Assembly (NCBI GenBank): GCA_001244265.2
Contig: CDLV01000005.1
Coordinates: 372,001 to 436,000 of the forward strand
Length of the DNA stretch: 64,000 nucleotides
From: Microbotryum violaceum
Taxonomy: Eukaryota
Direction of reading: 5' to 3'
Part shown: positions 1,672-58,263 of the stretch, in pieces
How the letters are laid out: the number at the start of each line of letters is the position of its first letter
How positions within the stretch are numbered: the first letter of the stretch is position 1
Notes under the pieces: model-generated
The model's input: only the letters and a program-made list of their open reading frames with translations
Told to the model about the DNA's origin: nothing
Database searches by the model: none
Made by a program: the position numbers and the translations under genes

Positions 1672-3412
1672 TGACTCGGTCGAAGAGGCCCGCCGAAGCG
1701 CGGATGGCCCTGGTGCCCGCGAGGGGCTCGGAGACGGGGATACGTTGAACGGCTGCGTGTACGTCAAAGACTGCCCCAGAAAAGGCGAAACTTTGTCGAC
1801 GACCTTTCCTTCTCGATTAATGTGGAACGTCGGGGTTTCTGGGCCATGCGCTGTCGGCGCCCGGCGATGTTGCAGCGGATTTGCAGGGACGGAGATGAGA
1901 CCCGGTGGTTCCGTTGGAAGTGAGGAGGTTCGGTCATTCTCGGGGGTGTCTGGGGGCCATTTAATGGGGGTGATCTTGGAACAGAAGAAGCGGAATGGTC
2001 TTCGAATGTGCTGTCGACCGAGAAGGGGAGCACGGGCTGCATGCGACTCGACAGACTGGTCGTTATGGAGGAGTCTCTCTGGTGCGAGTTAGGCTCGGCG
2101 GATGACGGGGAGAGCATCGGAGACCGCTCCGAAGCGTGTCCACCCGCACACGTCCAGTTCGCAGCAAAGGCGGCATTCGAAGGCGAAGTGGAGTTAGACG
2201 GCGTCGAGCAATGCCGTGCTTGGCTCATCCTGGCAGTATCCCGGCCGTCCCTGCTGTAGCCGCTTGGCAAAGCGGGTCCGGCCTCCCGAGCTGTCCTCGA
2301 CGTTACCCGACTCACGAGGTTTTGGTCAGCTCACGTGACGGCGTCTCCGGTTGGGAGGCTGCCAAGGCAAGGTCCAGCGGTCCTAAGCCGAGAGAATTTT
2401 GACCTGTAGAAGGCAGCGGAGTCGAACGGCTGACTCTGTGGAGACTGGCGGCCTAAGGGGTTGGCGGTGTCAGCGATTGACAAGCGTAAGCAAGGAATAG
2501 CCTCACGCGAGTCTGGCTGTGCCCCACGCGGCGCGCTTGGGCCAGCTCCAGCCAGCTCTGGCCGTGTGGGGGCTGCATGGCTATGACTTTACATGAGTCC
2601 AACCCCCCTTTTCAAGAAACATTGATTTTGCGTAGATAAACGAATATGTGAAATATAATCAGGCTTGATACAAAAAACAACAGCTGGAGCCGAGTCGGAC
2701 CGCGCAATCCGAATTGAGGATCCGCAGAAGTACACGCCCGGTTACGGCGCGAAGCGCGCCCCCCAAACCTCGCTTTTTACTGCGGGCCGGGTTTCCCGGC
2801 GGTTTTGGGTCCAGTACCATAGTTGGGAGCTTCCAGTCGAAGCCTCGGAGCAGTTGCCAAGAGAGATGAAAGACGTCACAATGGCCTTATGGCTTCATAC
2901 TGAAGTTCTCAGTATACACTCGCCTTTACATGACTGACATCTTTCGGACTTTTCTCTCTCGCATCTTGTTAATTATCAACACCAGTGGGAACCCGTAAAC
3001 TTAGCGGGAGGATAATATTCAAATAGTCGGAGAATTGGATTGAGCAGAGGTAAAAGAACGCCATACGAAGTACGGCAAAGAAACAATTAAATAAAAACAG
3101 AAAAAAGACAAGCGCCTGAGGAAAAATAAAAAAAAGGGAGGAGCTAAGCTAGATATAATAAGGATGAACGAAAGTGAACCTCCGTATTCACGCGTCGTTA
3201 GAACAGGTGTCCTGAGATCGGATGTTTAGTGTGGGGCGGACCGGAATCTTAATCGTACAAGGTCAGTACTATTCATAAGACCTAAAATAGGGTGAGATTT
3301 AAGTAAACGCATAATAATAAAAAATACCTAACAAATAATGTATAGAGGAAGAATAATCAATGATGTAAGCATAATAAAGAAGGTACCTTTTAAAAGGAAG
3401 AATATAGTTTTC

Positions 3413-3640
<228 letters not shown>

Positions 3641-4305
3641 TCACTCGACAAAAAGTAAAAACCGCAAAAAGGAGTCGGGCTAAAACTAGATCCTCAGAGA
3701 CTTTGCCGAAACAGCCGCCCCTACCTGCGCATGCCCTCGCATGCCCGAGGGTGTTCTCGGTTGCAGCTGCCACCCGCGTACCTTCCAAGGCTTCCTAGCA
3801 ATCAACGTCGCTTCTTTCTAATCTTCTACCTCAGTCTTGCGCTTCGACCGATCGCCCGTGTTAACCACTCGCCAGGATAGTCCCCAGTAAGTGCCCTAGC
3901 ATGCTTGCTGCCCTGCCGCGCCGCATCCCAAATACGTCTTAGCTGTGGACATCAATAGCGAGCTCTGGAAACTTTGACGCGTCCAGGTTGTTATTATGGA
4001 GGTACCCAGCGGACCGACCCAGTTCATTTTACTTCATCTTTGGCTTGTTCAGCTTCATGCTTTGGGAAAGCGACGTTCTCGACATTCACCTTCCTCAAGC
4101 GGTGTTACAGGGCGTGACCGACTAATATCGACTGATCCAGGCACTGGGTCGCGTTGCTCCTTCGCTGTGCTGTGTGGCATGTGCATACATCTCGACTGAT
4201 TGTTCAACGGCGATCAGTTCGACCCTAATTGCGATGGCTCATGCTAACTATGTCAATTGTTGTCCGAATTCTATTCCGTATAGTTCATCCTCCATGAACG
4301 ACTAA

Positions 4306-4605
4306 ATGCAGTTTTTGTTTGGTCCTGTCGTCCCCAACGCCCCGGCTGGCACTCCTCCCCCTCACCCGTCCCTACCTAGGCAGCATCCTGACTCCAGCTC
4401 ATCCTCGACCTTCGGTGAAAGATCGACAGCCAGCACCACCAGCCAGAAACGCCGTCGCAAGGCAACGATCCTGGCACCGAGAATCCCTCGAGGCTTGTTT
4501 GAGCGCGCGCACAGCAAGAAGACTAAACGCTCCGTCTCCTCAGCTGATGTCCAAAGATACCGCACGTTCGACCAAACCTTGTACATGAACACTCGACTAC
4601 TGTGA
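4306..4605 (+). other. Short ORF or gene fragment ending in a Cdc48/VCP C-terminal-like motif
   Basis: RIPRGLFERAHSKKTKRSVSSADVQRYRTFDQTL resembles the Cdc48 helix pattern (I.R.HFEEA....RRSVSD.DIRRYEMFAQ.L). No AAA domain is present. Confidence 0.4.
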
Positions 4606-5098
4606 TAAGAACGACATCCGCCCGTGTGCACATTAAGCTCGAGCCACTTAGCCCTCTGCGCCTGCACCTCGGAAGAGGACCGACTGGAACGCTTTCCAAT
4701 ACAGCAAATATGCTGACAGACTAGCTGCTAGCTGCAGAAAAAGGTAGAAAAAGGTATCGAGTGTGCGTCCCGATTTCAAGCGTTCGTGAGAAGTCTTTCA
4801 GGCCGGGTGGCACTGCAGAGTAGCAAATTTGATGTCAGGGCACTTCATCAAGGCACTTCCGAAGTTTACGAATGCTTGGAATAGGGACGCACACTCGAGA
4901 CGCACACTCGATACCTACCTCTGCAGCTAGTCTGTCAGCATATTTGCTGTATTGGAAAGCGTTCCAGTCGGTCCTCTTCCGAGGTGCAGGCGCAGAGGGC
5001 TAAGTGGCTCGAGCTTAATGTGCACACGGGCGGATGTCGTTGTTATCACAGTAGTCGAGTTTTTCAATGTACAAAGTTTGGTTGAACGCGCGGTGTTT
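4555..5098. repeat. Long inverted repeat (foldback): arms ~4555-4788 and ~4865-5098, spacer ~75 bp
   Basis: 4610-4728 is the exact reverse complement of 4923-5041. The flanks continue with a few mismatches and small duplications. Confidence 0.95.
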
Positions 5099-5832
5099 CT
5101 CACGGTTTGTTAGGGTTCTACACGAGTTTGGACGGGATCCCACTTAATCTCAGCCTGCTCTGACGGCGTTTGTTCGCCCGGAGCCTGACGTGCCCTTCAA
5201 TCGATTCACTGCCTCCTTGTTCCTGCCATGTCTCCCACAAGTATGACCGGGTCGGCGCGCTCCTGGCTCACCGGCTCGATCGGAGCCCCTCTCCAAGACC
5301 GAGCCAAGCAGGGGGCATGACAAGTAACCGGTCGTTCGGACTCAGAATAGTACGGGCAGACGCGTTGAGATCCAAATGTCATTTCACAACCACCAAGAAC
5401 CCTGTTTTGTTCATTTTGCTCTTACAGATTAGGTTGAAGCGGAATCGGGTCAGAGCGACTTTGGTGACCTCGGCCAGCAGCTCAACCACGTCGGGACAGA
5501 CCAGCCAAGCGTGTGGAAAATGGAGATGAAGTTGGGAGGTGTGAGGATATTCTGTGTTTGCTTTCTTGTTTTACGTGCACGTTCAGGCCGCGGCTCCGAC
5601 GGGTGCCTGTTCCTTAGTCTTTGTGTTGAACAGAGCCAGACAGAGCCCGACAATTGACCGTACTGGAATGCGAATTATTGAGCCGGGCTTTTTTAGTCAG
5701 ATCGTTCCTTCTCCTGTTCGGACTCGTCCGCTTTGCTATCCTCTCCACCCGTTATCTCCCCCATCTCATCTCGTCAGAATGGTCAGTCACACCTCACACT
5801 CAGGCTGGTTCCTTCCCATACCCAAGCTGACA

Positions 5833-7833
5833 ATGTCCCCGCGTCCCGCGTCCCGTATCCCCCATCTCGCTCCTCGGCTTGTGCAGCCCGCCGTCGTTCC
5901 TCCGTCCGATACGTTCGCGTGGGACAAGCTCGCATTTGCGCTGTACCCGACCTCGGGCTACGTCAGCTACACCTACAAGGACGGCGCGTGGGGTAAAGCA
6001 GAGTGGGTCAGCGAACCCTACCTCAAGCTTCACGTCGGAAGTGGTCGGTCTTCTTTGCTTTGTGCTCGCCTGCTCGCTGCTCTCGGCCTCTGACCGGCAT
6101 CGCACCGCATCTCTGATTCCCCGAGCTCGGGCTTGCTCACCGCGTGCTCACTGTCGCATCTTCCCTTCCCACAGTCGCTCTCAACTATGGTGCTTCGACT
6201 TTTGAAGGACTCAAGGCGTTCCGTCACCCCGACGGACAGGTGAGTTTTCTACGTTCCCCACTGAGCGAGACGAGACCGATGTCCAACGCCGAGGACGACC
6301 AATAGTGGTTTCATTCCGGAGCCTTTCCTCGCCTTGGAAACATCGAGCTAATCACGATACATGCTTTACGATCCTTCCCAGGTCCGCCTCTTCCGACCCA
6401 AGGACAATGCCGCTCGGATCCAAGTTCGTCCGGAGCCAGCTCGTCGCGGTTCGGGATCCAGCGAGATCTTTTTCTTGACCCGAACGCTGACACATTCGCC
6501 TCGTCTACGCGAATAGCACTCTGCAGAGGTTGTCTCGATGCCGCCCGTGCCCGAGGAACTCTTCCTTGAGGCTGTCTCCCTCGCCGTCGGTCGCAACTTG
6601 GATCTCGTGCCCCCTCATGCCCCACATGGCGCTTCGGGGTCGATGGTACGTTCGCAACGCTCCCATGTGCTCTTCATGTTCAAGCTACGTCCATCTAATC
6701 TCAAGCTGTACGCTTTTTATAGTACGTTCGTCCCTTGGCCTTCGCCTCGGGTGAGAACTTGATCCTCGCGCCCCCCTCCGAATTTCAATTCATCGTCTAC
6801 GTCACCCCGACTGGAAGTCTGTACGGTACCGCTGGACTCAAGGCCCCCGCCATCGATGCCTTCGTGCTCGAGACCTTTGACCGAGCCGCTCCTCGAGGTG
6901 TTGGGCATGCCAAATTGGCTGGTAATTACGCGTGAGTCAGGCAGGACAGTTGGAGATGGCGAGTAGGCGCTAAGGCATCTGAGATCATGTCGAAACACAG
7001 ACCTACTTTCCGACATGCTGCAGCTGCGAAGCAAGCTGGTTATGCTATTACCCTTCATCTTGATTCGGCCACTCGAACTGTAAGTTCCTGCTCGGTCAGG
7101 TTCACAAAGGAGGATGGGATCAACGCTGAGTTTGTCGCGCTCCCTCTTGTCTCATCAACAGCAAATCGACGAGTTCTCCACCTCCAACTTCCTCGCCATC
7201 AAGAAACGCTCTTCATCGGACGACGACAAAGTCACCTTGGTCGTGCCTACCTCGGAATCGATCTTGAAATCCGTCACGACCAAGGCCATCATCGGAATCG
7301 CTGAATCGTTCGGATGGACCGTCGACCGACGTATCGTCAAGTTCTCCGAGGTCATTGAGGGTGCGTTTGAGGAAGTTGCTGCTTGTGGAACTGCGGCTGC
7401 TGTGAGTCGTGCACCATTGATGCGGCTGGCGAGGACGGAATGGATTGCTCACTTTCGGAGGCTTTCTCTTCACACAGCTTACGCCTATCCGGTCCATCAC
7501 TTACCACGATACACCCGAAACGACGCAAAAGATGTCAGTATATTAGGGCATTATTTTTATGGTCACATTGACCACCTAGAACCTGACTTGAAACACTTGC
7601 TTCGCGTTTTGTCTATTCAGCTCGATCGGCGATGGTGTCAACGCCGGACCTCGCTTCCTCTCCAGTCAGTTTCTGGCTACGATGCAATGTCTCTTGGATG
7701 ATTGAACGCAACCCTGACCCCTACCAACTGTTTCTCATTAGTCCTCTCTGAGCTGACAGGTATCCAGAGCGGTACGATTCCGGACAAGTTCGACTGGACC
7801 TGGCCCAAGGAAGGGATCTATGGATCAAAGTAG
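5833..7833 (+). CDS. Branched-chain amino acid aminotransferase (class IV PLP enzyme), multi-exon
   Basis: Spliced motifs [42 protein letters not shown] and EVAACGTAA; stop TAG at 7831-7833. Confidence 0.9.
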
Positions 7834-8408
7834 AATCGAAAGCTATCCAAGAGCGTACACGGTTGACAAATCACCGGGACATATTTTTCGTCTTTTCGAG
7901 TCCCCGAGCTATCAGGGTCCAAAACCCTTACACTTGAAAATACCTCCCTTACTCGAAAGCCGTTCGCAATGAGAAGTTGCCGGGTACCTCGATTTCCCCA
8001 CGATGCGCCCGTTAGACCCGAAACGATCTTGAATTTGTAATTGTCGACTTGTGCGAAGAATCTAGGCAAAGGCATGCGGCACAGAGAATTCAATCTTTGT
8101 GGTGGGAACGGCGTAAGAACCATTTGTGATCCCAGCTGGCCGTTTGTTGGAGTGCAGCAGATCGAGCGTGAGGAAGCCGTATTTGTAATTGGATGCCTGG
8201 ATGCCAAGTTTTCTCTTCGTTTGGTGAGTCAAAGCAGCCAAAAAAAAAAAGTTGGGCGCTCGGCTGCGCCTGGAAAGGCCCGAGACGCGCGCGAAATCCG
8301 TCGGCGGGAGATAACTGACGGGGAGGGGAAAGAACACTGAGACGGATCACTCCCACTCCTGTTCCGCTCCCCTTCCCACCCCGTTCCCCTCTACCCTACA
8401 CTTGAACC

Positions 8409-10573
<2,165 letters not shown>

Positions 10574-11310: not shown

Positions 11311-12531
11311 ATGGCTATTGGTGGTACGTTCCAACGAAGCACTGAGCGCGAAGGGCGTAGTCGTCGTCTTTTCTGAGGCGGGCGGGGTGGGTTCAGGCGG
11401 GGGAAAGAGTGTGTGTGTGTGGGCGCGCCAATTCGTCGGTCGCAAAGGGGGAGCCGGGAGCGACAACGAGCGAACCGACACCGCCAGCCATGGCTTTTTG
11501 CCTCGCCTCGGTTCAGGGGGGTCTTGCACATCCTGGACGATGGAATCCATCTCGCTGTGATGGAGGAAAGGGCCCGATCGAATGGATTGGATAATTACTG
11601 CGGTCTCAGAGGGGGGCCGAACAGCACGTTTGGACGGGGTGGCAATTGGCGATGGGCCGGGCCTGGCTGCTCGCTCGCTGGCGGTGGGCTGCGAGGACGC
11701 AATTGGCCCTGGGCTTGGGCTCGGGGGCTCAGTCGTATGGGCAGGGCAGAGGGGGACTCTCGGGTCGGCACACGGCAGTGCACAATGGGGGAGACAACCA
11801 CCCGACGATGATCTGAACATCACCAACATCAACAGTGCGACCAAGAGCGCTGACCACGTGCTTGCTGTGTGTGTGTTGCAGACGTTTCCCGATCGCGCCG
11901 TACGCTCCGAAAGGCCCAGCTCGATGCGCCTTCGTCGGTGTGAGTACACCCTTTTCGCACCGACTTCACTTTCACTCGTTACATCAACTGAACCTCTACT
12001 GATCCATGCAGCCGACGGACGATCATGTCCGCCTCGTTGAGCAAGGAGTTGCGCGCAAAGTACAACGTCAGTCTCATCTTACAGCCTCACATACGGATGC
12101 CCAAGTACATTGAACTGATTCTCTACTCCTCATTCCCCACACCCTCCTTTTACAACAGACCCGCTCGATCCCCGTTCGCAAGGACGACGAGGTCATGATC
12201 GTCCGAGGCACCTACAAGGGGCGTGAGGGCAAAGTCGCGCAGGTGTACCGCAAGAAGTGGGTCATCCACGTCAACGGCGTCCACCGCGAGAAGGGTTCGG
12301 GCGCGACGGTCCCGATCGGCGTCAACCCTTCGAAATGCGTCATCACCAACCTCAAGCTCGACAAGGACCGCAAGAACTTGCTGAAGCGCAAGGACCGCAA
12401 GGCCGGCGAGACGAAAGAGGAGGACGTTGAGATGAAGGCTGTTAGTTCGATTTCTACCTACACCTTCTTGGGTCAAGTCACTAGCGCATGGAAACTGACC
12501 TTTACCGAGTTGTCCCCACCACTCGCAGTAA
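11311..12531 (+). CDS. RPL26: 60S ribosomal protein L26 (uL24), five coding exons plus a 5'UTR intron at 11218-11300
   Basis: Spliced [80 protein letters not shown]. Confidence 0.93.
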
Positions 12532-46404: not shown

Positions 46405-49340
46405 CTAGCCTGACGTAGCGAACAGTCTTGTCGCCGTTGCCAGTTCGTCCTGCATCAACTTGGCGAGCTATCGGTAGCAAACGAAGTTCAGTCAGCAATT
46501 CCTTGCCCACCCACGCCTGAACTCAGGAAGAACCATGCACTCACCCTAGTCGTGACCTTCTTTTTCTCCAACACCTGCACGCATCTCTCCGCCTCTCTCC
46601 CGATTCTCCGTTCCCACTCATCCTTCCTACCTCTCTCTCCCCCCTCCCCCTCCCCTTCTTCGATCCCCTCCACCTCCCTCCTCACCTCCTTCAACTCATC
46701 CACTAACTCCTTTCTCACCGAATACGGTCTATGATGTAACTCGTGATACGTCTGCGACCTCGAAGCGCAAAACTTGCCGAGATTAAAATCGAGCGTTTGG
46801 GAAGCATCGACGAGCAACTTGAGTGCCTTCTCGCTGTGGTTGTCATTTTCCAATGCGAGTTGGTGCACGAGTTGTTTCCGCGCTTTGCGGTTCAAGGGAG
46901 AGAGTGTTTTGTGGTCGTAGGCTTCACCTGAGAGTTCGGCACGGAAGATGGACGCGCGATGACGACCCATCACACAAGCATCGCAAGACGTCGCTCGTAA
47001 AGCATCGTCAATCTCGTGCAGGATGAAGGTGGGGCGAACCTTGATCGCTGCGCGGAAAACGGGGGTCCATGCCGAGGACCCGAGAAGGGAGTTGAGGTGG
47101 TCGCGATATATCTCGTGCACTTTGTTGTGCGCCTCGAGCATCTCCTCGTCGGCGAGCCAATCGATCTCGGGGGCGATGATGGATCGTACGATCCATGACA
47201 GAAAAACCTTATTAGTATATTAGGCTGGAGCGGGTCAGCTCGATCAAACAACAGACCCCACACGCCATCAAGGTGGACCCACCTTGAAATGATACATCGG
47301 ACCCTGGGACTTGCCAAGCGTTCGGCGTCGAATGTCTTGCACGAGCGCTCGGTCCGTCTCACTTTGGTCGTCCTCGTCTTCGTCGACGATGAAGCCGGGG
47401 ATATCCGCATCCAGGTCCGTGGTCTGACCGTTCTGAGTAGAATAATCCTCGCCTTCGTCCGTGTCTTCGTCTTTATCTTGAGCATCTTCCTCCTCAGAAG
47501 CTCCCAGGTAAGATCGTGCGACATGGTGCGTCGACGCCGGCTCGTCATTGTCCGAGTCGACGACCCTGCGTTTTCGCCGCATACTCTCGTACCGTTTCTC
47601 TGTTGTCAATCCAACGTTAGCCGTCAGCTAGGTAATCTCAAAACATCATCCTGGAGGACTCACGCTCTCGCTCCATTCTCAATTTGGCAAATTTGCTGAT
47701 CTTGTTACTTCCTCGTCGTGCATCGTCCGGAAGCATCGTTTCTTCACCACTGAGCTCGAGATCGTCCTCGTCTCCCGAATTGGTCCCGTCGTCGTCTTGT
47801 TGCTGTGAGCCGCCGTTGTTGCCGTCACCCTCCGATTCACTCTCAGAACCCGACGAAGGGGTCGGGGTTCGTATGGATCCCTTCTTCGCTTTTTCCCTCT
47901 TTGGAGAGCCTCGACCACTCTTCTTCCCAGACGAAGACCGAACAGGCTCGTCATCGTCATCGTCATCTTCATTGACGATAAACGCTTCATCACTCTCATT
48001 CTCACTCTCTTCGTCGTCGGACCGCTTCCTCTCCCTCTTCTTGGCCACCTCCTTGACGCTCTTGCGTTTAGAGGATGGAGTAGTCGAAGGAAACCGACGA
48101 CGAGGCGGAGACCTGGTAGAGAGCACTTTCTGCTTCTTGGGTTGAGGGACCGAGGTGATGATGCGTCGATGACCCACGGACTCTTCACTGATCTCTGACG
48201 AGCTTGTTGACGCCGGGCGTTTGCGAGACGACGCCGTAGCCTTGGTTTGAGTACGACGAGCACTTCTGGTAGAAGATCGGGGCAAGACGTCCTCTTCCTC
48301 CGTTTTTGATTCAGTGCCGGACTCGGATTCGACGACCCTCTTCCTGCTTGACGACAACTGCGAACGAGCTGTGGGCGTAGGTCGACTCTTGAGCACCGCT
48401 TCCGAGCTTCCAGAAGAACTCTCGCTCGCTTCCTCGGCCTCAGAGTCAAAGAGGTACGCATCGCACTTGGATTGGGATCGTCTTGGATTGTGTCCCTCTT
48501 CTTCCTCGTCGTCGTCGTCTTCTTCCGGATCCTCGGTACCCGATCCCGAACTGGATAGCACCAAAGTCTCAAGCGGCGGAACCTTTTTGCTCGGCGAGGC
48601 CATGACCGATCTCGGCGTTTTCGTGGGTGACGAAGCAACACTGGATTTTTTGGTCGGCGACGAGAAGCGAGAGTTGTCGACCCATACGCAGTCGAAGAGG
48701 GAAGTGCTTCGTGATCGTCCTCTACTACCCTCCGCACCGAGGTCGGCTTTTCGGGGGGAGCTATGTGGTCGTTGTGTCGTTGAAGGGAGAGGTGTTGGAT
48801 CCGACTGGTTATCGTCGTCGTCTCCGTCGTAGGGCAATTCGATGACTCGTTTCCGGCGTTGAGGACTTGGTCTTGACGGTGGAGTCTGCTTCGAGCCGAG
48901 TCAGGAGATGAGCCCCTGGACCCTCGACGCTTCAGCCATTCCCCCAAGTCATGACGTACCTCTGCCTTTCCCTTGCCCTTCTTCCGCGACCTCGCAGTAT
49001 CTACCTCGCTGTCATTCGACTCCTCTCCACTCTGACGGCCTTCCAAGAGCTTTGGCCCTTCATCGTCGCTCGCGGAAGAGGCAACGCTCTCTGCCGTTCT
49101 TGACGCCACGAGATCCGTACCATCGACTAGACCCCTGGCATCACGATAAACGATACGGGAGGCAATCTGCCGCCCGGTCTGAGTCGAGGGAGCCTTAGGG
49201 AAGCCCCAGACGTCGAAAGAGCGTGAGGAGGAGGATGGATTGCCCACGCGGTTGGGAGTGGTGGATAAGCTGGGGGAGCTGTAGGAGAGGGAGTGGTCGT
49301 CTTGGATATTGAGCTGCATTTGGCGAGATGGGCCTCCCAT
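46405..49340 (-). CDS. Low-complexity acidic/Ser-rich protein with a C-terminal DUF4211-like Cys/His domain
   Basis: The ORFs are joined by plausible GT-AG introns (for example 48887-48959). The C-terminus reads SSAWTPVFRAAI, CDAC, LSGEAYD and LGKFCASRSQTYHELHH. Confidence 0.7.
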
Positions 49341-50367
49341 CCCTGCGGGACTGTTGTCGGTAGCTTGGAGGAAAGGAGGAAGGGGTCGAGACCGTCACCA
49401 CCACGACCAGCCCGAAAGGGGCCCGTGCGCGCCCGTTAGCTTCCGTTCGACTGCTGATGCATGCTGACGTGCTGACATGCTGACAGCTGCCGCTCGGCCC
49501 CGCTCGGCGAGCGGCGCGCCACGTGCTGTGCAGAGTCGCCGATTTTCAGTCGCTGCGGTCGCTGCGCATGCGGAGGAACGTCATCAATTCGGATTATGAC
49601 TTGCGACGGACTAGCCTACGCAAACTATACGCGGGAATTTGTCAAAATCTCCACGCTGAATGGCAGTTTTTTGGGTAGGTCCTACATCCCGTTCAGGCCG
49701 AATACTTAAACATGCCGCACGGATGGCAATGCAAGGCCCACTGCACCGAGCGGCGATCAAAGCCGCGCCAAGATGGAATAGTACAAGATGTGTAGGCGGT
49801 CCAGCAAACGGGTCCAGTACCAGACGAACCTTCTCAACCCACCGCATTCTTGCCATGAATCTAGCAACCCCAACCCCTGAGCTCGCCTTCGCCGGAACTT
49901 GAAGGGCTAGTACGACCAATGGCTTAGCTCGAAAGGACCGCCGAGCGGTGAGTGAGGCAATGAGAAACAGACAAAACGACAGCTAGTCTACCGCACCGCG
50001 TAGACCGAGGTTGTCTCAGTGAAAGAGGAACGGCTTGGGGCCTAAGGCTTTGGTGAGTTCCATTCGGGTCCTATTTTCGGGCCCTCGTTTCCACTCATTG
50101 GCAGGAGTTGGCGTCGACGCGCCGGCACTAGTGGTTGCTGCAGGTACCGTGTGCGATCTTCTGGCATAATTATCTTGCATCTCCTTCTCAACGAGCTCGA
50201 TCCGCCATCTCTGTAAGCTCTCTTTGAGACATTCCGTATTCTAGAAATCCTCTGCCTGGCCGACACAGCGCTAGTGATAGACGCTAGCTTGTCTGCACTG
50301 ACTGCAGCCCCTGACTTGGCGGCAGTAGTGGCCGGTCGTTACGCGGAAATCGAACCCACTGCAGCCT

Positions 50368-50772
50368 CTACTGCCTTCGACGCCCGCCTCTTGCTCCTCC
50401 CACCCTCAACTTCATCCTCTCCTCCAGTACCACCCTCCTTCTTTCCAGGCTTTCCAACCTCGTCCCGAGCTTCTGCATCCTCCATCTCCCACTGCTGATC
50501 GCATCCAAGACCATCCCCGTGAAGATCTCCATTGTCCTGCCCGCCCCTTCCTGATCGCTGAGTTTGGCCTTGAGCTTGGGGAAGCCAAAGAGTCGTTGCA
50601 GTGTCGTGTAGTGGGCGTCCTCGATCGTGTCACACCGGAGTGCGTCGCACAGCACTCCCCTCGCCGCGATCCAGACGTTTCGCGAGTCGAAGCAGGCGTT
50701 TCGCAGACGAGGCACGCGGGAGAAGTGTCGTGCTTTTGCTCGTGCTGGAGCTTGCGCGTCGGGGTGAAGCAG
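50368..50772 (-). mobile_element. Degenerate 3' remnant of a related LINE ORF2 (zinc-finger region)
   Basis: FTPTRKLQHEQKHDTSPACLVC aligns by eye with VTPTRKRQHTQGHASSPTCLFC of the larger element. The similarity continues in another frame. Confidence 0.75.
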
Positions 50773-50999
50773 TTTTTTTTGGTATGAAACTCATCGCTAA
50801 TTTGCAAGACGAAAAAAAACCTTACGGAACTAAAGGAGATGCTGCCCAGTATTGCTGCCCAGTATGCACGATGATGACCACAACCGCCGCTCGATACGTT
50901 GTAACTAGCAGAACAGACCAACCCGATACCTCCGAGTTCAAGTCCCCCCACCCACGGTTGGAATGAAAGGACGACTGAAAATAATACACAAGGATTCGG

Positions 51000-53900
51000 A
51001 AGCCTTTTTTTCTGTGTCGACATTTGTTATTCTATTTTTTGGATTTTTTTTTGGACATTTTTTTTTTCTTTCATATATATATATATATTGTAGAAAACGT
51101 TCATTATATCGCCCCCAGTTCCTGTTCCCCCTGTTTTGGCCTACGAAAAACTAGATGGAAGACTACGATGATAACACAAACCGCCCGCAAAAGTGCGAGA
51201 AACGAGCCAAGTCCACTTTTTTTTTTTTGTTTTGACTGGGGCTCATAAATTGCAATCCTTCGGGTTGGCTGGGACCGCTACAAAAAGAGCTAAAGGAGGT
51301 TATAAAGCAACGACGGCAAGCAGTTGGGTGAAAGTCAAACCCCTGCGCGCAAAGAGCGCTGCGCAGGTCAAAACCCGCCGAGCACCTAACGCGGACTCCA
51401 ACGGGCGGTGAGTACTGCTGCCGCTTCACGTCCCAAGAGCGGGAGCAAAGACACTCGAAAACCAGGCAAGAGCGCCTAGAGAAAGAAGGGGGAGAGTATA
51501 CAGAAAGTCACAACTGGGGATACGGAGAACCAGGAATACTAAGACAGAGAGGAGGGGAACACACCCGAGGGGCCAAGGGAGGGGGTCGAAGCCGGAGGTA
51601 GAGGTCCCCAGGGACTAACAGGCCGCAGCCAAGCCCCAGCTACTCGTCACCCCGACAGCGCCTGATGTCCTCCCTTGGCTAAATCTCGAGTGCTGGCTGT
51701 TGAGCCGTCGGGGCCGAGAGAAAAGCGATCCAGTACAACGAAACGAGCCTCGCCTTGACGCGAGGATATTGACCAGAAACGAGCGACCTTCCTTCCCGAG
51801 CCATGCCGTAGATCTTGACCGACGCGAACGAACGAACCATTCAACGGAATCCAACACACGGCTTAGGAGTAAAAGGAGAAGTGGCTGAAGCGTAGTCAAC
51901 AACCGAGCAACAGGAACGAGAAGAGGAAGGGAAGGGAAAAAGGGGGGGAAAGGAGAGGGAAAAACTTCACAAAGCCTCCAACGCAAAGACAATCGACCTG
52001 GCTTGCCGATCCATCCAAGAACAAAAAACCGCTACTGCGCAAAGTAGAGAGAGAGAGGGAGAGGTGCGCAGCCTTCCACTGCGCAACAAGTTCCAAGACA
52101 GTCAGCTCACAAAAGAGGAGTCGACCTCCGAAAAAGAAGGGAGGAAAGGAGGGGAGGAAAATGGGAAGGAAGGACTTAATCGGTCATCACACCTCCCAAT
52201 CTCGAGCCCCAGGCACAAAACCCGCTCGAGAGAGAAAATCTCGCTCGAACGCTCTGAGTGCACTGGGGAGCGAGGGAGGGGCCACGACCTTGTCCAGCTC
52301 GAACCGCTGATGAACGCGCCAGCGGAGCAGGTGCAGCCGCTGGAAGCCGATCGCGCAGGCCAGCCGAACCCACATCCATCTCGAGGTCGTTCTCCCACGA
52401 CCCCGCAAAAGGGGGAGCCCCATAGTCAGCTGCTCCGGAGTGAACGTCGACGGATCGACGTCGGTATCCTCGATGCCCAGCTTGTCGAACAGAATGCGAA
52501 GCACCCCACCCCAGAAGCTGGTCGAGTACGCGCACTCGAAGAAGTAGTGCGACACCGTCTCGATGACCGCTGCATCGTTGCCGCAGAACAGACACGTCGG
52601 CGAAGAGGCATGACCCTGAGTATGCTGCCTCTTGCGCGTCGGCGTCACGTCGTACATGAGCCGCCAGTGGGTGTCCTGCTCCACAGCAGACGCAAACCGG
52701 TCATGAAGCCATCTCCAGAAGCGCTTCCTATCGCTCTGAGAAGTCCCATCACGGAAACGCTTGACACGATCCTCCCTCCCTGGGAACCGAACCACGTTCA
52801 CAAGCCGACGAAGCTTGCGAATAGTGAACGGTCGGGTGAGCCCAAAGAAGTTGAAGCACCGAGGACGGGGAGCCTCCTTGAGAGGTATCCGAGCAGGTCG
52901 CAACGCGGTCTTGGGCAGCAAGGCTTTCGCCTTGAGCAACTGACCCACGCGCGACCACACGTGCTCGTGCTGTAGGGCGGGTTCCTTAGAGTGTTGCCAG
53001 AACCCGCATCGATGACCAACCAGAGCCCAGCCCTTCCCTTCGTCCCTCCAGTACAGGTCCGCGATCTGCGCAAACTTCGCCACTGCGTCCGCATCGTCAT
53101 ATGCGTGCTTGGCACCTTCAGCATAGAGTGAAGGGAGGCGAGGCGGAAGCGAGAGCAATTCGGGGAGCGTAAGGAGTTCGGACTTGATGGTTGGAACTGT
53201 GACCCTGGCAGCTGCAACGACTGCCCCCCAGCGCGTCGAGTCGCGATACAGCTTCTCGACCCGAGCCGTGCTGCTGAAGAACCCCCACGGACTGAAATCG
53301 CGGGTCGCAGCGACGAGGGACCTCCAGCTCTCGCGAGCTAGGGGCGCCCAGATCGCCTCGTTCGAGCCCGCCACAGCATCCCAAAATCGAAGCGCCACCG
53401 AATGAACGATGTCGCCGATTGAAATCAAGCCCAAGCCACCGTCCTCCCGAGCCTGGAACACGAAATCGCGAGCGACGGTATTTCGCCCTGCTCCTCCCCA
53501 AACAAAATCCGTAAGTGCTGTCTCCGCCGCCTTAATGAACCATTGAGGCGGTATGTCGAAGGACAGCACGTGGAGGACCGTCGAGATGATGTGAGCGTTG
53601 GCATAGAAGACCTTCCCACTCGGCGAAAGTGTCCGGTCTCCAGCGGCGCGGGTCTTGGCCTTGATCCTGTCAAGAACATGGGTCCAAAACAGTTTCGAGT
53701 CACCGTGGCGAAAGAAGGCATAGCCGCACCACTTGAAGCTCTCCCCCTCCTGCACCGTTGGCAGCGCCTGCGCAGTCTCGTCCCGAAGCCAGTTCGGTCC
53801 GAGTGGTAGCACCAGCGTCTTGTCCGTGTTGGTCTTCCCGTTGGTTGCCTCGTACCACGTCTGCGACAGCGTTTCCAGCTTCGACAATGCCGCCGGTGAC

Positions 53901-55440
53901 TCCACTACCACCACAGCATCGTCGGCAAACGCCAGATGCGTAAGCTGCGCACGCGGCCCCCTGGCCACACCTTCTGCAGGTCGAGCGCGATCCCACGCCG
54001 AACGAGGGCGTCGAGGAAGGGCTGGAACGTGATGTTCCAAACCGGGCACGAGAGGGGATCCCCCTGACCGAGACCACACAGCAACCGCACCAACTCCGTG
54101 GGGAACCCATTGATGAGGTAGCGCACCCCCAGAGTCTCGGGATCGTACAGAGCGCGCAGCAGGGAAATGAAACGCTCACCAAAGCCAAAGGCCTCGAAGA
54201 CGTCGAAGATCCATGCGTGATCGACCCGATCGTACGCGCTCTGCTGATCCAAGGACAAGAGGGCGCCCTCTGGGAAAACATCAGTACCGAGTGATCGGAG
54301 TTTTTCGAGAAGGAGAGTGAGATGACTTCCCGCGTCCGCTGAACGTCTTGATGGCATGAACCCGTGTTGCGCCGGCGGCAAAAGCTCGCCGAGCACCCCA
54401 TTGAGTCGCGCCACCAAGACCTTGCTGAGGACCTTGTAGGTTGTCTCGCGCAGTGTGATCGGTCGATATGCCCCCAGTGATTTCAGATTGGCCCCCGGTT
54501 TGTTCTTGGGCAAAAGCCGCACCAGCCCCTCTGCCAAGGACGCCGTCATTTTACCCCCCTCCCAAATCGAGTTGAACAAATCCAACAGCTTGGGAGCAAA
54601 GTAGGTTGGCAGCGCCTTGAAAAGCTCATACGGAATGCCCGAAGGCCCCGGTGATCGCCCTGAATCCGTCTTCTTCAACGCCGCTTCGACCTCGGAAAGG
54701 TTGAAGGGATCGTCAAGCGCCACTCTGGCTTGAAGGGGCAGCCGACGACCGAACGTAGGGTCCGAGCGGTCGTCATCGTAGCATTTCGCCGCGCGAATAG
54801 GGTCGAGCAGGGACCGACGTGGGTTCGTCGGGTCGCCACGAGCTGGGTCCGGCGTGAAGAGCGACTGTGCGTGCCGTGAAGCAATGCCCAGCGCCTCCTG
54901 CATGTCAACGGTCTCGGTGCCATCCACATCCTCCAGCGAGACGATGCTCGTCTGGCGACTCCGGCGGTTGAGACGCGTGCGAATGCTTGCCGATTGACCT
55001 TCCCTCGAGTCGACTGACGGCACATGCGCACGAATGCGCAGCCACTGAGCCTCCTTTACCGCCAACTGGTCCAACCGCGACTTGGCAAAAGCATACGCAT
55101 CGCGCTCGGCCTCATTCATGTGCTCACCGCGTGCCTCCAAAGCCTCCATGACGGATTGGCTCTCGGCCCGCAGTCGGCGCATGTCGGCACGAGTCGAGCG
55201 GTATCGTGCATGGCCAGCGACTGCAACCGCCCGCAGAGCGGCGTCATAGACGTCGCCGAGCGGAGCGGTCCCCTCGAGCCTTCGATAGACCTCGTCGACG
55301 ACCCCGGGAATCGATGCGACAAAGTCTTGATCGTCAAAGACCGTTGGGTTGAGCCTCGAAATGAAATCGCTCGTAGAGGGAAGAGAAAGGCTACGCGGAG
55401 CGCGGCAGTGATCGCGGGGACTGCGATGCGGTGTGTCCAC
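51000..55440 (-). mobile_element. 5'-truncated non-LTR retrotransposon (L1/Tx1-like LINE) with ~1 kb 3'UTR; 3' boundary approximate
   Basis: ORF2 with RT and zinc-finger motifs. T-rich runs at 51005-51070 and 51216-51233 are candidate tails. Confidence 0.88.
52187..55440 (-). pseudogene. LINE ORF2 (end of endonuclease, RT, CCHC zinc finger) with one frameshift near 53960 and no N-terminus
   Basis: RSPGPSGIPYE, YRPITL, QHGFMPSR, LDQQSAYDRVDH, GLGQGDPLS, AFADD and CLFC..ETVSHYFFEC. Confidence 0.9.
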
Positions 55441-55526
55441 AATTTTTTTTTTGTATGAAAGTCACGTGACCTGTCAATGGTGATATGTAGTCACATACAC
55501 TACGGGTCAATACGCATTCTAGCGTA

Positions 55527-55598
55527 GTGGCGGGGGCGGGACGGTACCGCGGGCGCCTGCAGAGCGTCAGATCATGGGTTCGACTCCCATTCGCCACT
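55527..55598 (+). tRNA. tRNA-Cys(GCA), intronless, with an atypical D-arm
   Basis: Cloverleaf: acceptor GTGGCGG/TCGCCAC, D stem GCGG/CCGC, anticodon stem GGCGC/GCGTC with loop CT-GCA-GA, T arm ATGGG-TTCGACT-CCCAT, and U discriminator. Confidence 0.8.
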
Positions 55599-55606
55599 TT
55601 TTTTTT
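55598..55606 (+). terminator. RNA polymerase III oligo-T terminator
   Basis: A T9 run immediately follows the tRNA 3' end. Confidence 0.8.
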
Positions 55607-55951
55607 GAGGCTCGACCCGATCTTTTCGCCTGACGTCAAATGCACAAAAAACGAAGCACGGGGTCTTCCTGACTATAGCAACAGAGCGGGTGTTTTTTTC
55701 TTACTGGACAGATGGCCCTTTGTGGCACATCCGAGCCGTCCGAAAAAGCTCTTTTGCAGATGCAACGGAGGAAAGCAGGTGCCAGTTGAATTCCTACGGA
55801 CCACTACGGACTGGAAGCGCCGCTCCACATTACGCCGTCTCTTGCCTCGTGCCCCCTCAGTCTCACCCGCTCCGCCTCGCACACTCTTCTCCCAGTCTCT
55901 CCAAAGCGAACGCACCCTCGGAACACGAGTCAACGAAGGAACAAGGACCAA

Positions 55952-58263
55952 ATGAGTCAAGGTCAGCCTTGCCCCTTCTGTGCGAGACTGACTGGGCAAT
56001 CCCGGGGAAGGCTGACTTTCCCGAACGAGCTTCATTAATTCGATTTAGACGAATCCGCCTCCGAGGCCCATCGGCTGTACCGTGCTGTGCCAGGTCAGTC
56101 CACCTTCCTACCACAACAGCGGTGAATCCCATCGTATTCAAGCCGTCTTGCCTCTCTACCCCTCTATCCTCTGCTCTTGGACCTCGGCGACAGGCCACGA
56201 ACCACGTCATGGAGCAATGCAGACCGACTCGGCCCGATCTGACGACCGTCATCCCGTAAATGGCGTCGTCGCACCCGCCTCGACGGGGGTCATGTACGTC
56301 TCAGAGCGTGCAGCTGCTAATGGGTGGTCACCCTTGAACGAAGGTGTGAGTACTGGGCGATCTCTCACGACTAGCAGAAGCAAGACCGAGGACCTGACTC
56401 TTTGGAGATGGGGTTGCTCCTTTCTCGTTCGTTTCTTCACAAGTGGGCCAACTTCGTCAGTAAAATACACACAAGGTCTTTTTCAGCAGACGGGGACCCA
56501 ACCTCTGACCACGGTTTGGGTCGAGTTCTTACAGGGTCAGGGAGCTCCAGAAGTCGGAGATTTGCCCGGCGCACCTCCTCGACCCCAGGTCATCGACATG
56601 TCCAAGATGGCGAGTTTCCCATCTCCACGGCGGACCAGTCATCACGTCCATTAAACCTAACGGATGTCTTCATCTCGACACTACCAGGGAGCCGACGTCC
56701 ACGAATACGCGCCTACGACCGGTGTGCGAGAACTGCGCGCCGCCGTCGCTCACCTCTACAACGAAACGCACCGAAAAGGCAAAACAAGCCAGTACACTGC
56801 CGACAACGTTGCGATCGTACCCGGTGGTCGAGCAGGATTGACCCGCGTCGCTAGTATCATTGGAGAGGTCTACGTTTCTTACCGTGAGTTACTAAGGAAA
56901 GGCAGATTCGAGAGCGAGAGAGAGAGAATGATTGAGTGCGGTCAACTAACGAGTGCTTCCCTTCGTAGAGGTCCCCGAGTACACTGCGTACGATCAAATG
57001 CTGTCGTCATTCCGCAAACTCGTGCCCATCCCGAGCATGCTCGATGTGGAAGATGCCTACCACCTTAGTGAGCCCGGGCAGGCCCAAACTTTCGAGCCTT
57101 GAGTTGAGGATGGCACCTCTTTAATGCGTAGACATCGATAAGCTCAAAAAGAACATCAAAAACCAAGGCCTGAGCGTCGTCGTCGCTTCGAACCCGCGCA
57201 ACCCGACGGGGCAGGTCATCCATAGCGAGGAGCTTGAGCAGCTCGTTGACCTCGGACGTCAAGGGACGACGATTATTCTTGATGAGGTGGGTCTGACGGA
57301 GGGAGAGACGCCTGCAATCCGATCACAGTGGGGACGACTAATATTCCTTGTGTGTGGAGCCCGCAGTTCTACTCAATGTACCAGTACGAGTTAGGAGAAG
57401 GCGCCGTTGTCTCGGCCGCCAAATACGTCGAGGACGTTGAAAAGGACTCGGTCATCATCGTGCGAGCCAACTAACTCACGGCTGTAGGGAGCGCTCCGAG
57501 TTTGATCCTTCAAGTTCTTTGAGCGCACAGATTGACGGTCTCACCAAGAACTGGCGTCTTCCTGGATGGCGTGTCGCCTGGGTTATCGGACCCAAAGCGC
57601 TCGTCACCGCCCTCGGTTCAGTCGGAGGTTACCTCGATGGTGGGGCGAACCACGTCTTGCAAGTGGCCGCGATACCTTTGATGGAGCCTTCTCGGGTCGA
57701 ACAAGATCGTTTGGCCTTACAAAGACATTTCAAAGCCAAGAGGGACCATGTGCTCGAGCGACTCGAACGTATGGGCTTGCCGGTCAAACACAAGCCGACG
57801 TCGACATTTTATGTGAGTTGTCCGCAGTCGCCTCGCATCAGATTAGCTTGAAGCGCGAAACTGACAGCGTGTCCCATGTTCCTTTCATAGATCTGGCTCG
57901 ATCTCTCTTGTCTCCCCGCACCATTGGATGGTGGTCTTGTCTTCTTCGAAGAGTGCCTCAAAGAACGCGTCATCGTCACTCCAGGAATCTTCTTCGACCT
58001 CAACCCGGCCGTAAGACGAAACCTCCACGATTCACCCTGTCATCATTTTGGTAAGTCCTCTCGAGACCTCCAACTGTCTCTAGAATTCAATGAGGTACTG
58101 AGGCCTGCGAATCTATCCTGCAGTCCGACTCTCGTACGGCCCGCCCTTGGAAGAGATCGATCGAGGTTTGGACGCGATCGAAAGGTTGCTAAATCGCGTT
58201 CGAAAGGCCATCAAGGGTGGGGACAGTTTGTTCGATCATGTCGATAAGGATCTGAAGCAATGA
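55952..58263 (+). CDS. PLP-dependent aminotransferase class I/II, multi-exon
   Basis: STGVMYVSERA, GQGAPEVG, YAPTTGVRELRAAVA, VPGGRAGLTR, SNPRNPTG and DGLTKNWRLPGWRVAW (PLP lysine). The start was inferred from short 5' exons. Confidence 0.9.

Follow-up and report, generated by a model that had tools for sequence, protein, structure and literature searches.

A stretch of 64,000 bases of the Microbotryum violaceum genome, here called the window, contains a nest of at least five retroelement pieces of about three families, all on the minus strand, whose head stands 62 nt from a tRNA gene. We lean, with somewhat better than even confidence, towards the view that this nest of LINEs grew by insertion at A-rich tails and that its closeness to the tRNA gene is incidental or the result of a weak bias.

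The tRNA gene and its surroundings

A single tRNA gene, tRNA-Cys(GCA), is reported by ARAGORN in the 64,000 bases (55526-55599, plus strand), and RF00005 is the sole Rfam match in the whole window at gathering thresholds (55527-55598; score 48.6 bits, cut-off 29). Both results agree with the preliminary description, which had named this gene as the only tRNA gene in 64 kb. Other Pol III RNAs (5S, U6, 7SL or others) are absent from the 64-kb window in the same Rfam search. The gene extends from G1 at 55527 to the discriminator U73 at 55598, the G1-C72 pair is present in the sequence, and a T9 tract at its 3' end (55598-55606) fits a Pol III terminator. As the Rfam match shows, the gene is intact and the LINE insertions lie outside it. 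A second, degenerate tRNA had been suspected at ~50890-50965 from a T-arm-like word; it was rejected after Rfam gave no tRNA match there at E<=10.

The spacer between the gene and the first retroelement-derived bases (Table 1) is single-copy, and by arithmetic the contig depth in the bin 55348-55681 is accounted for by the 88 nt of LINE within that bin. The window is otherwise densely packed with housekeeping genes and holds one transposon nest and one tRNA. A/T runs of at least 8 nt are scarce in it, with 17 in the 64 kb, seven of them in the nest or the tRNA terminator, six in a T-rich block at 3415-3631 and four elsewhere.

Table 1 The tRNA gene, the spacer and the pieces of the nest, ordered by distance from the gene (positions in the window)
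Feature	Position	Strand	Basis or remark
tRNA-Cys(GCA) gene	55527..55598	+	ARAGORN; Rfam RF00005; sequence; T run
Single-copy spacer between tRNA and first retroelement-derived bases, 62 nt	55465..55526	.	Single-copy contigs cover the spacer
Piece E: 12 nt (TGACTTTCATAC) + A10	55443..55464	-	19/21 match to 50793-50773
Head of fragment C (family 2): TTGTGGAC	55435..55442	-	LINE-A duplication: its 5' copy forms the last 6 nt (55440-55435)
LINE-A, 5'-truncated family-1 L1-like LINE, 4,218 nt	51217..55434	-	Pfam; tblastn to P0033/P0036; contig depth; T12 run
Rest of piece C: terminal ~150 nt of family-2 3'UTR	51058..51216	-	L001 match; shared peptide
Repeated DNA, unclassified: A-rich remnants, then body of piece D	50794..51057	-	Contig depth; loose ends
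Tail of piece D: TGAGTTTCATACC + A8	50773..50793	-	Immediately 5' of LINE-B, CTG spacer between
LINE-B, family-2 fragment: last ~140 ORF2 codons + ~50 nt 3'UTR	50345..50770	-	

A truncated L1-like element facing the tRNA gene

The largest piece, LINE-A, retains an ORF2 remnant (55419..52190) that corresponds to residues ~257-1333 of 1333 and includes the reverse transcriptase (RVT_1, E 5e-15) and zf-RVT domains found by Pfam. The copy begins at ~residue 257 and has neither ORF1 nor the APE endonuclease; from that residue on it is 96-99% identical in tblastn to the full-length Microbotryum ORF2 proteins P0033 and P0036. These data bear out the earlier description of an L1/Tx1-like element head-to-head with the tRNA, and the element lies on the minus strand. 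The reading frame is broken by a 1-base deletion at ~53956, where other copies read one more C after 53956 (in run X1, at a depth of 1606 out of 1655). A 3'UTR (52186..51229) and an A12 tail (51228..51217) follow. Summed contig depth over LINE-A is ~18-160 times single copy and climbs toward the 3' end, as a prolific LINE family does whose copies are truncated at the 5' end. LINE-A is a dead-on-arrival copy from a young, abundant, multi-copy L1-like family of Microbotryum.

The endonuclease and ORF1, named earlier as something to look for in a full-length copy, are seen in proteins of full-length relatives. Full-length members of family 1 combine an ORF1 carrying a CCHC knuckle with an ORF2 that has APE endonuclease, reverse transcriptase and zf-RVT. 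In P0033 and P0036 the endonuclease (Exo_endo_phos) occupies residues 8-247, and in the ORF1 protein P0034 the CCHC knuckle is visible without a further Pfam match. The best PDB match of the reverse transcriptase is human L1 ORF2p (1e-28), with R2 behind at 1e-18. Family 1 resembles human L1 ORF2p as well as plant L1-like proteins, which points to an APE-type non-LTR retrotransposon of the L1 group, and hallmarks of that group are present: the poly(A) tail (A12), a 6-bp target-site duplication and 5' truncation that varies across gene models.

The 5' junction of LINE-A is sharp. Single-copy contigs from the tRNA flank (runs X5 and X17) enter the repeat by exactly 30 nt (k-1), to 55406, so that the edge of the repeat lies at 55435/55436. 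The target-site duplication, GTGGAC, has its copies at 55440-55435 and 51216-51211, and the direct repeat that flanks the element matches at 18/20. The 5' end placed earlier at 55440, 86 bp from the tRNA, holds for the tRNA-side end of this duplication; the LINE body itself starts at 55434, 92 nt from G1. The nest edges are bridged by contigs in runs X1, X5 and X17, under two organism labels, and run X8 has no listed piece that bridges 55391-55693. No contig from the four runs on 48000-58000 (80% likeness) joins across the nest as an empty-site allele would.

LINE-A landed 8 nt inside the older family-2 fragment C, beside the A10 tract of piece E. The family-2 3'UTR contains ...GGATTGGTGGAC... 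both in L001, a full-length family-2 element from another locus, and in a further copy that this genome carries (the loose end at 51216), and GTGGAC is part of it in both. The duplication stands 2 nt beside the A tract and not within it, so a textbook TTTT/AA nick is not a clean fit, which counts against a role of the A tract.

The older pieces

On the far side of LINE-A, piece C resumes with the second GTGGAC and ends in (TA)n-GAAAG-A10 (A10 at 51067-51058). It is 89% identical over 117 nt to L001 (8900-9014), a stretch that likewise ends in A10, and its peptide GNRNWG..FLQ is common to P0014, P0043 and P0030. The repeated DNA beyond it has a summed k-mer depth of 40-100 times single copy, with loose ends at 50960 and 51145; outside piece C it has no match among the 144 collected proteins and no tRNA-like Rfam match at E<=10. 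LINE-B is truncated at both ends (loose end at 50770), carries one frameshift, and is 86-88% identical in amino acids to P0068 (residues 1941-2070) and 80% identical in nucleotides to L001 (7937-8373). The LINE debris described earlier behind the element is therefore real, and consists of the family-2 C-terminus in LINE-B and of the terminal ~150 nt with tail in piece C.

A shared 12-nt terminus with an A8-A10 run stands 3-8 nt ahead of each of the two truncated LINEs in the window. A 16-mer of this E/D terminus, at up to 2 mismatches, occurs twice in the window against 0.01 expected, and none of 100 shuffles reaches two. Since it shares its terminus with piece D, we read piece E from its sequence as a probable retroelement tail with extreme 5' truncation; alternatively it may be a template-switch add-on. 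A target duplication for E was sought in the block 50340-51100, which shares no word of at least 7 nt with its 5' flank. Piece D gave chance-level matches only against 56 loci. Homology between segments C and D was considered and dropped as not significant (the local alignment scores 47, while shuffles average 34.7 with sd 6.3 and reach 58), and only the 21-nt repeat was kept. The 'TTTCATAC-poly(A)' element is named here alongside LINE families 1 and 2.

Family copies at other loci

The same kind of join recurs elsewhere. More than 12 residues precede the first family-1 match in 31 family-1 gene models, six of which merely start at the ORF2 N-terminus. In six of the remaining 25 (P0008, P0010, P0014, P0030, P0043 and P0051) the family-2 terminal peptide and a K-run, that is poly(A), stand directly before the family-1 sequence, with six different family-1 truncation points and in two species. 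The upstream partner in P0030 is a near-complete family-2 ORF2. The same family-2 start without a K-run precedes family 1 in P0062, another LINE lies upstream in P0025 and P0087, and copia sequence does so in three of the 25, with copia reverse transcriptase in P0059 and P0118. As the flanks of other family-1 copies vary (family-2 tails, copia, others), a single conserved target sequence is absent. These gene-model stacks carry no information on what adjoins the stack heads.

The sole further usable genomic locus recovered was that of L001 (85-89% amino acid identity), which ends in ...TTCTAC-A10 and is adjoined upstream by copia on the opposite strand. Neither ARAGORN nor Rfam finds a tRNA in its 12,388 bases, which include ~2.9 kb upstream of the element, a result that speaks for family 2 only. 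Metagenomes yielded 55 loci, of which 54 hold distant LINEs at 22-28% identity (two short matches are higher) and say little on family 1; any tRNA is present at two of the 55, in neither case head-to-head at the LINE 5' end. A scan of genome contigs gave one irrelevant match in a bacterial MAG (31% over 67 residues), and viral contigs gave no locus.

How the nest may have grown

Under the reading we favour, LINE-A would have entered by target-primed reverse transcription, leaving the A12 tail and the 6-bp duplication, at a site 8 nt into the older fragment C and right after the A10 of the shorter tail E. The older pieces D and then LINE-B show the same join, a tail with poly(A) followed by a 5'-truncated LINE. 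These L1-like endonucleases and reverse transcriptases may prefer A/T tracts, which are scarce in this genome of 55% GC and would come mostly from earlier LINE tails, so that insertions would breed more insertions in the same orientation. The seed event beside the tRNA could have occurred by chance or because open, non-coding DNA that tolerates insertions is mildly favoured, and LINE-A would not recognise the Pol III machinery. The anatomy of the nest, its families and junctions and the recurrence of stacks elsewhere are observed, whereas we infer the order of these events, the tract preference and the incidental part of the tRNA gene.

The account put forward in the preliminary description, which we consider unlikely, yet the most serious of the rivals, has one or more of the LINE families recognise the tRNA transcription complex, perhaps by an ORF1-TFIIIB contact like that of TRE5-A, and integrate ~60-90 nt upstream in fixed orientation, each new copy landing between the tRNA and the previous one. 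It would explain the head-to-head layout, with the stack head at 62 nt and LINE-A at 86-92 nt from G1, as well as the single strand shared by all of the at least five pieces at this one locus, with their 5' ends toward the tRNA. The lone transposon nest adjoins the lone tRNA in 64 kb; for one nest edge to fall within 100 bp of that gene, on the right side, we put the chance at ~0.3-1%. With 141 tRNAs, 392 LINE copies and 26.1 Mb, values given for a related Microbotryum species in the available text of PMC4469406, we estimate that ~0.1-0.4 such LINE-tRNA adjacencies are expected per genome, which counts against the pile-up at tails. TRE5-A forms the same TRE-TRE tandems under the same orientation rule, and tRNA targeting arose repeatedly in compact genomes. 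If E is the youngest piece and not the oldest, the entry points of C, LINE-A and E all fall within the same 8 nt, at 62-70 nt from the tRNA, exactly what a position-specific, integrase-like rule predicts. Against such targeting, LINE-A, the youngest of the pieces with a date, went into an older LINE fragment and not into free spacer, no copy of the spacer sequence separates the stacked pieces, and distances of 62-92 nt are unlike any described system. Full-length family 2 (L001) lacks a tRNA within ~2.9 kb upstream, family-1 copies with copia or other flanks exist, and the distant metagenome relatives point the same way. Tandems are also built by elements aimed at tRNA genes, so this counter-evidence leaves room for targeting. 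That at least one Microbotryum L1-like family is truly Pol III-directed, 60-90 nt upstream, 5' end to the gene and in same-strand tandems, as an independently evolved fungal counterpart of TRE5 and the first non-LTR element of any fungus to target tRNA genes, seems to us a shade less probable still. A literature search found no report of a tRNA association of Microbotryum LINEs, and in the available content of the 24 supplements of Perlin 2015 'tRNA' appears only in protein annotations.

Two further explanations were weighed. Unaimed insertions near the tRNA may simply persist or be favoured, because the DNA there is free of coding sequence, poor in nucleosomes and tolerated by a haploid genome crowded with genes. 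The dense housekeeping genes of the window suit this idea, as does a nest that is fixed in three of four runs, and LINEs and LTR elements are described as lying farther from genes than DNA transposons (Perlin 2015, PMC4469406, in the text available). Taken alone, such a haven leaves the strict single orientation and the nucleotide-level reuse of one junction unexplained, and at one locus it is inseparable from the pile-up at A tails; we regard it as improbable. Lower still we rank chimeras of the U6/L1 kind, made in a single event: with the cDNA not yet linked to the chromosome, the reverse transcriptase would have left its LINE template and continued on the poly(A) end of a second LINE RNA. 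LINE-1 chimeras with other RNAs are on record (PMC11838501, in the part available), piece E with just 12 nt and A10 would be remarkably short if it had inserted by itself, and the spacers at the joins measure 0-8 nt in the window and in the six gene models. The A10 tract is, however, separated from the LINE-A body by the 6-bp duplication, which puts E outside the duplicated unit, and the near-complete upstream partner in P0030 is long for a switch product.

Comparison with known elements

The closest solved structure is that of human LINE-1 (ORF2p, E 1e-28). That element shows 5' truncation, a poly(A) tail and a short target duplication, and inserts at A/T-rich nick sites. The Microbotryum family differs in its ORF1 (P0034), which has a CCHC knuckle and not the mammalian ORF1p fold, and in an ORF2 that ends in a zf-RVT of the plant L1 and Tx1-like type. 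Tx1-group LINEs (Keno, Mutsu, Dewa), which Kojima and Fujiwara are said to have described in 2004, reportedly share the APE type, CCHC ORF1 and zf-RVT, and some target Pol III-transcribed genes. Tx1-group LINEs enter their target gene or repeat at one set sequence; in the Microbotryum nest, by contrast, the tRNA-Cys gene is intact and no target is conserved beyond the A tract.

Copies of the algal element Zepp reportedly abut one another at poly(A) tails and share a single orientation, as Higashiyama is said to have found in 1997. Zepp of Chlorella and Coccomyxa is likewise an L1-group LINE that occurs in clusters of nested, truncated copies and is not dispersed (PMC3446292, in the portion available). 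Zepp forms one cluster per chromosome at putative centromeres or telomeres, whereas the Microbotryum nest, of about three families, lies in a gene-dense arm by a tRNA.

The dictyostelid elements TRE5-A (DRE), TRE3 and NLTR-A/B share the two ORFs, with APE, reverse transcriptase and zinc finger in ORF2 (PMC5391098 and PMC5006619, in their available portions). [quoted passage not shown] In the accounts available TRE5 lies ~44-54 bp upstream, with essentially every copy next to a tRNA gene, in contrast to the 62-92 nt of the nest at the one locus seen. TRE tandems are described in the available part of PMC5391098 as not integrating into each other, whereas the LINE-A duplication lies 8 nt inside fragment C. 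A full-length relative without a tRNA nearby (L001) is a further difference from TRE5, and the likeness is one of layout and domains. Spaller et al., in the text available, describe TRE targeting as unique to dictyostelids.

L1-clade elements of M. violaceum go back to Hood 2005, as cited in the accessible part of PMC3956500, and REPET LINE families make up 0.93% of the M. lychnidis-dioicae assembly with 392 copies (Perlin 2015, PMC4469406). The elements of both studies belong to the same genus and clade, and the portions of text available give neither tRNA placement nor tail-to-head stacking for them.

Implications

Were tRNA proximity the rule, an APE-type LINE of a basidiomycete would have arrived independently at Pol III safe-harbour targeting and would add one more origin to those known. 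The host can be transformed and many of its relatives have been sequenced, which would make it useful for asking how an endonuclease and reverse transcriptase machine, and not an integrase, reads a transcription complex. Were it not the rule, the nest would offer a clean example of an L1-like tail-to-head pile-up at scarce A tracts in a GC-rich, compact genome. The stacks bear on how repeat growth on the non-recombining mating-type chromosomes is read, and also on transposon annotation: in Microbotryum, many of the annotated 'genes' with 1,800-2,500 residues arise by reading through stacks of this kind.

The tRNA gene and its neighbourhood

The only tRNA gene in the 64 kb is a tRNA-Cys(GCA), found by ARAGORN in the whole window and also the sole Rfam match there at gathering thresholds. 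On manual reading its acceptor stem starts with G1-C72 from 55527 and U73 lies at 55598, and the 3' end of the gene directly enters a T9 tract. On the opposite strand, two overlapping open frames bear RVT_1 and zf-RVT, and behind this LINE a third, weaker match marks another LINE fragment. These results bear out the preliminary description, which had placed a LINE 5' end about 86 nt upstream of this gene, head-to-head with it and with LINE debris behind. The layout is confirmed; its interpretation leans towards an ordinary one and away from targeting.

Outside the nest, 51 frames of at least 170 aa matched housekeeping families only (among others homocitrate synthase, RPL26, NOL10, hexokinase, FMN dehydrogenase and ferric reductase) or nothing. 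A blastx comparison of the whole window with 144 collected LINE and copia proteins confined the signal to 50461-50792 and 51621-55461, so the sole transposon nest of the window adjoins its sole tRNA gene.

Coordinates of features in the window and in the metagenome contig L001
Feature	Position	Strand	Detail
tRNA-Cys(GCA)	55526-55599	+	ARAGORN
Rfam match	55527-55598		RF00005, 48.6 bits
Open frames	55461..53905 and 54175..52187	-	RVT_1 and zf-RVT
LINE-A (family 1)	51217..55434	-	5'-truncated
Candidate duplication	55440-55435 and 51216-51211		GTGGAC
Replaced stretch	53789-53852		inside ORF2
Repeated UTR segment	51643-51809	-	~170 nt, LINE-A 3'UTR
Piece C (family 2)	51203..51088	-	3'UTR end
Tandem duplication	50840-50865		13 bp, perfect
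Recurring motif with A8	50793-50773	-	immediately 5' of LINE-B
LINE-B (family 2)	50770..50345	-	ORF2 end
Weaker LINE match	50765..50448	-	
T-rich block	3415-3631	+	
L001, copia	5-2355	-	
L001, family-2 ORF1	from ~3055		
L001, family-2 ORF2	5259-8319		
L001, A10	9013-9022		
L001, flank match	12007-12170	-	to P0016

Identity of LINE-A

In its workings the element is an ordinary L1-group LINE. Human L1 ORF2p is the top solved-structure match (E 1e-28), ahead of R2, and the available part of a review names Microbotryum violaceum among the sources of L1-clade elements (PMC3956500). A Microbotryum silenes-dioicae protein model encoded on a contig of 1.03 Mb has 100% identity to the C-terminal frame of LINE-A, and dozens of paralogues are present across M. 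silenes-dioicae, M. saponariae and M. intermedium (29 matches; 129 in a longer search). Full-length ORF2 models (P0033, 1,333 aa, and P0036) comprise an APE endonuclease (residues 8-247), RVT_1 and zf-RVT, while about 570 further residues in the fused model P0034 represent an ORF1 with a CX2CX4HX4C knuckle. The alignment of LINE-A to ORF2 begins at residue 257 and continues to the end with 96-99% identity, so that both ORF1 and the endonuclease are missing. A single frameshift is present, where nearly all other copies in 4/4 sequencing runs carry an extra C behind 53956 (depth 1606/1655 in run X1). Summed contig depth over 50338-55347, which is not a copy number and was taken only as 'tens of copies', reaches about 16-160x single-copy and climbs toward the 3' end, a profile in keeping with a prolific family whose copies suffer 5' truncation.

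The replaced stretch, with 64 or 94 different letters in other copies versus 32 or 62 in the window copy, marks a subfamily difference. Many family-1 gene models include the translated repeated UTR segment at their C-termini, and P0034, P0032 and P0104 have it at their N-termini, immediately ahead of ORF1. It reflects either elements arrayed head-to-tail, with predicted introns bridging them, or the same module in the family's 5' and 3' UTRs, an arrangement reminiscent of the TRE5-A B-module. Depth peaks in the adjacent bin, 51340-51673 (~160x single copy).

Junctions and composition of the nest

In minus-strand order, the 5' side of LINE-A reads TGACTTTCATAC-A10-TT-GTGGAC, then LINE, and the 3' side ...CAGTCAAAAC-A12-GTGGAC-TTGGCTCG, with 18 of 20 bases common to the two. 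The simplest reading of these letters is an A12 tail and a 6-bp duplication. Single-copy contigs with the tRNA flank end at 55406 in runs X5 and X17. Since this lies 30 bases (k-1) beyond 55436, the edge of the repeat is fixed at 55436.

The host of this insertion can be recognized through L001 (Ga0224731_1115, JGI metagenome), a 12,388-base contig with a full-length family-2 LINE whose protein is 85-89% identical to M. silenes-dioicae models. Its 3'UTR contains ...GGATTGGTGGAC..., and a further copy in this genome, seen as a loose end in the runs, has this same context ahead of GTGGAC. GTGGAC is therefore family-2 sequence, and LINE-A landed about 8 nt into a family-2 fragment, piece C, that was already present and 5'-truncated. 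This piece matches the last 115 bases of the L001 LINE, ending ...TTCTAC-A10, at 89%, and LINE-B matches its ORF2 end (80% nt) and is 86-88% identical to the model P0068.

Piece C lies directly behind the A10 tract. The 12 bases before this tract recur with one change before the A8 tract next to LINE-B (2 in the window versus 0.01 expected; 0/100 shuffles reach 2). We read this motif as the putative terminus and poly(A) of a third, unclassified retroelement. Piece D retains about 200 nt of a repeated body, and piece E no more than the 12 nt. Outward from the tRNA gene, the order is a 62-nt unique spacer, E, the head of C (8 nt), LINE-A, the rest of C with its tail, the unclassified repeat and D, LINE-B and unique DNA, and all pieces of the nest share the minus-strand orientation. 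In X1, X5 and X17, both outer edges are spanned by contigs at single-copy depth, so that the nest is common to two organism labels; no empty-site contig was seen in the compared runs. The 13-bp tandem duplication (TGCTGCCCAGTAT twice) is absent from nearly all other copies of the repeat (13 bases left out, depth 1773/1824 in X1).

Stacking in other copies

Three indirect sources bear on the role of the tRNA gene: read-through gene models, L001 and distant metagenome relatives. Among 31 family-1 models with more than 12 residues before the first family-1 match, 6 merely begin at the ORF2 N-terminus, leaving 25. Six of the 25 (P0008, P0010, P0014, P0030, P0043 and P0051, from two species) have the family-2 terminal peptide, then a lysine run (poly(A)), then family 1 truncated at six different positions; such models are possibly spliced, and the head of each stack is not visible in them. 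P0062 opens with the same family-2 start and lacks the lysine run; another LINE precedes family 1 in P0025 and P0087, and a copia RT does so in P0059 and P0118, P0029 being similar to P0059 there. The read-through models thus point to 'tail, then truncated LINE' as a general habit of these families.

Many public Microbotryum 'proteins' of 1,800-2,500 residues (P0030, P0034, P0039, P0068 and others) are read-throughs, either of ORF1 and ORF2 or of a stack in which LINEs from two families are joined, as in P0030 (family-2 RT and C-terminus, poly(A), truncated family 1).

ARAGORN and Rfam found no tRNA in the whole of L001, where a copia sequence on the opposite strand lies upstream of its LINE. 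The contig is Microbotryum-like DNA, part of it matching the upstream flank of the M. saponariae family-1 model P0016. Any tRNA occurs in 2/55 metagenome loci (L007, 1.5 kb downstream; L012, 4.7 kb upstream, same strand), and none of the 55 has one head-to-head at the LINE 5' end.

Target choice

Joins with spacers of 0-8 nt next to A tracts are what would be expected if the poly(A) tails of earlier LINEs served as landing targets for later ones, and A/T runs of at least 8 nt are scarce outside transposon tails (4/17 in the window). Both argue against Pol III-directed integration upstream of the tRNA gene, and we lean, by a little, towards a tail-directed nest with the tRNA gene incidental. 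Moreover, LINE-A, the sole piece datable as young, entered an older LINE rather than the spacer, the stacked pieces have no duplication of spacer sequence between them, L001 is without tRNA, and copia-flanked copies exist. We regard Pol III-directed integration as unlikely, even though by our own estimates such adjacency has a chance of about 0.3-1% for the window, with about 0.1-0.4 cases expected per genome, a figure built on M. lychnidis-dioicae values (141 tRNAs, 392 LINE copies, 26.1 Mb) from the available part of Perlin 2015 (PMC4469406). Orientation, too, is that of TRE5-A, and were E the youngest piece, three insertions would fall inside 8 nt, 62-70 nt from the tRNA gene. What probability remains is divided between insertions retained passively near a tolerated site and chimeras produced by template switching.

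Among known systems, Zepp copies are reportedly joined at poly(A), as Higashiyama is said to have described in 1997. As far as the available text describes them, the Zepp clusters of green algae resemble the pile (PMC3446292). The layout likewise resembles TRE5-A in the accessible parts of its sources (PMC5391098, PMC5006619), the former of which has it forming tandems upstream of tRNA genes; unlike TRE5-A, LINE-A did not enter free spacer at this locus. No report that LINEs of Microbotryum or of any other fungus are associated with tRNA genes was found in the openly available literature, including the accessible text of Perlin 2015 and its 24 supplements, which were searched by word.

A T-rich block elsewhere in the window

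Within 1-9000 of the window, where no LINE or copia protein similarity was found, an uninterrupted 153-base T run is followed by five T runs of 8-17 bases split by A/AG/AGG, in a block of 14-15% GC flanked by DNA of 40% GC. This block could be a giant minus-strand retroelement tail or a homopolymer expansion.
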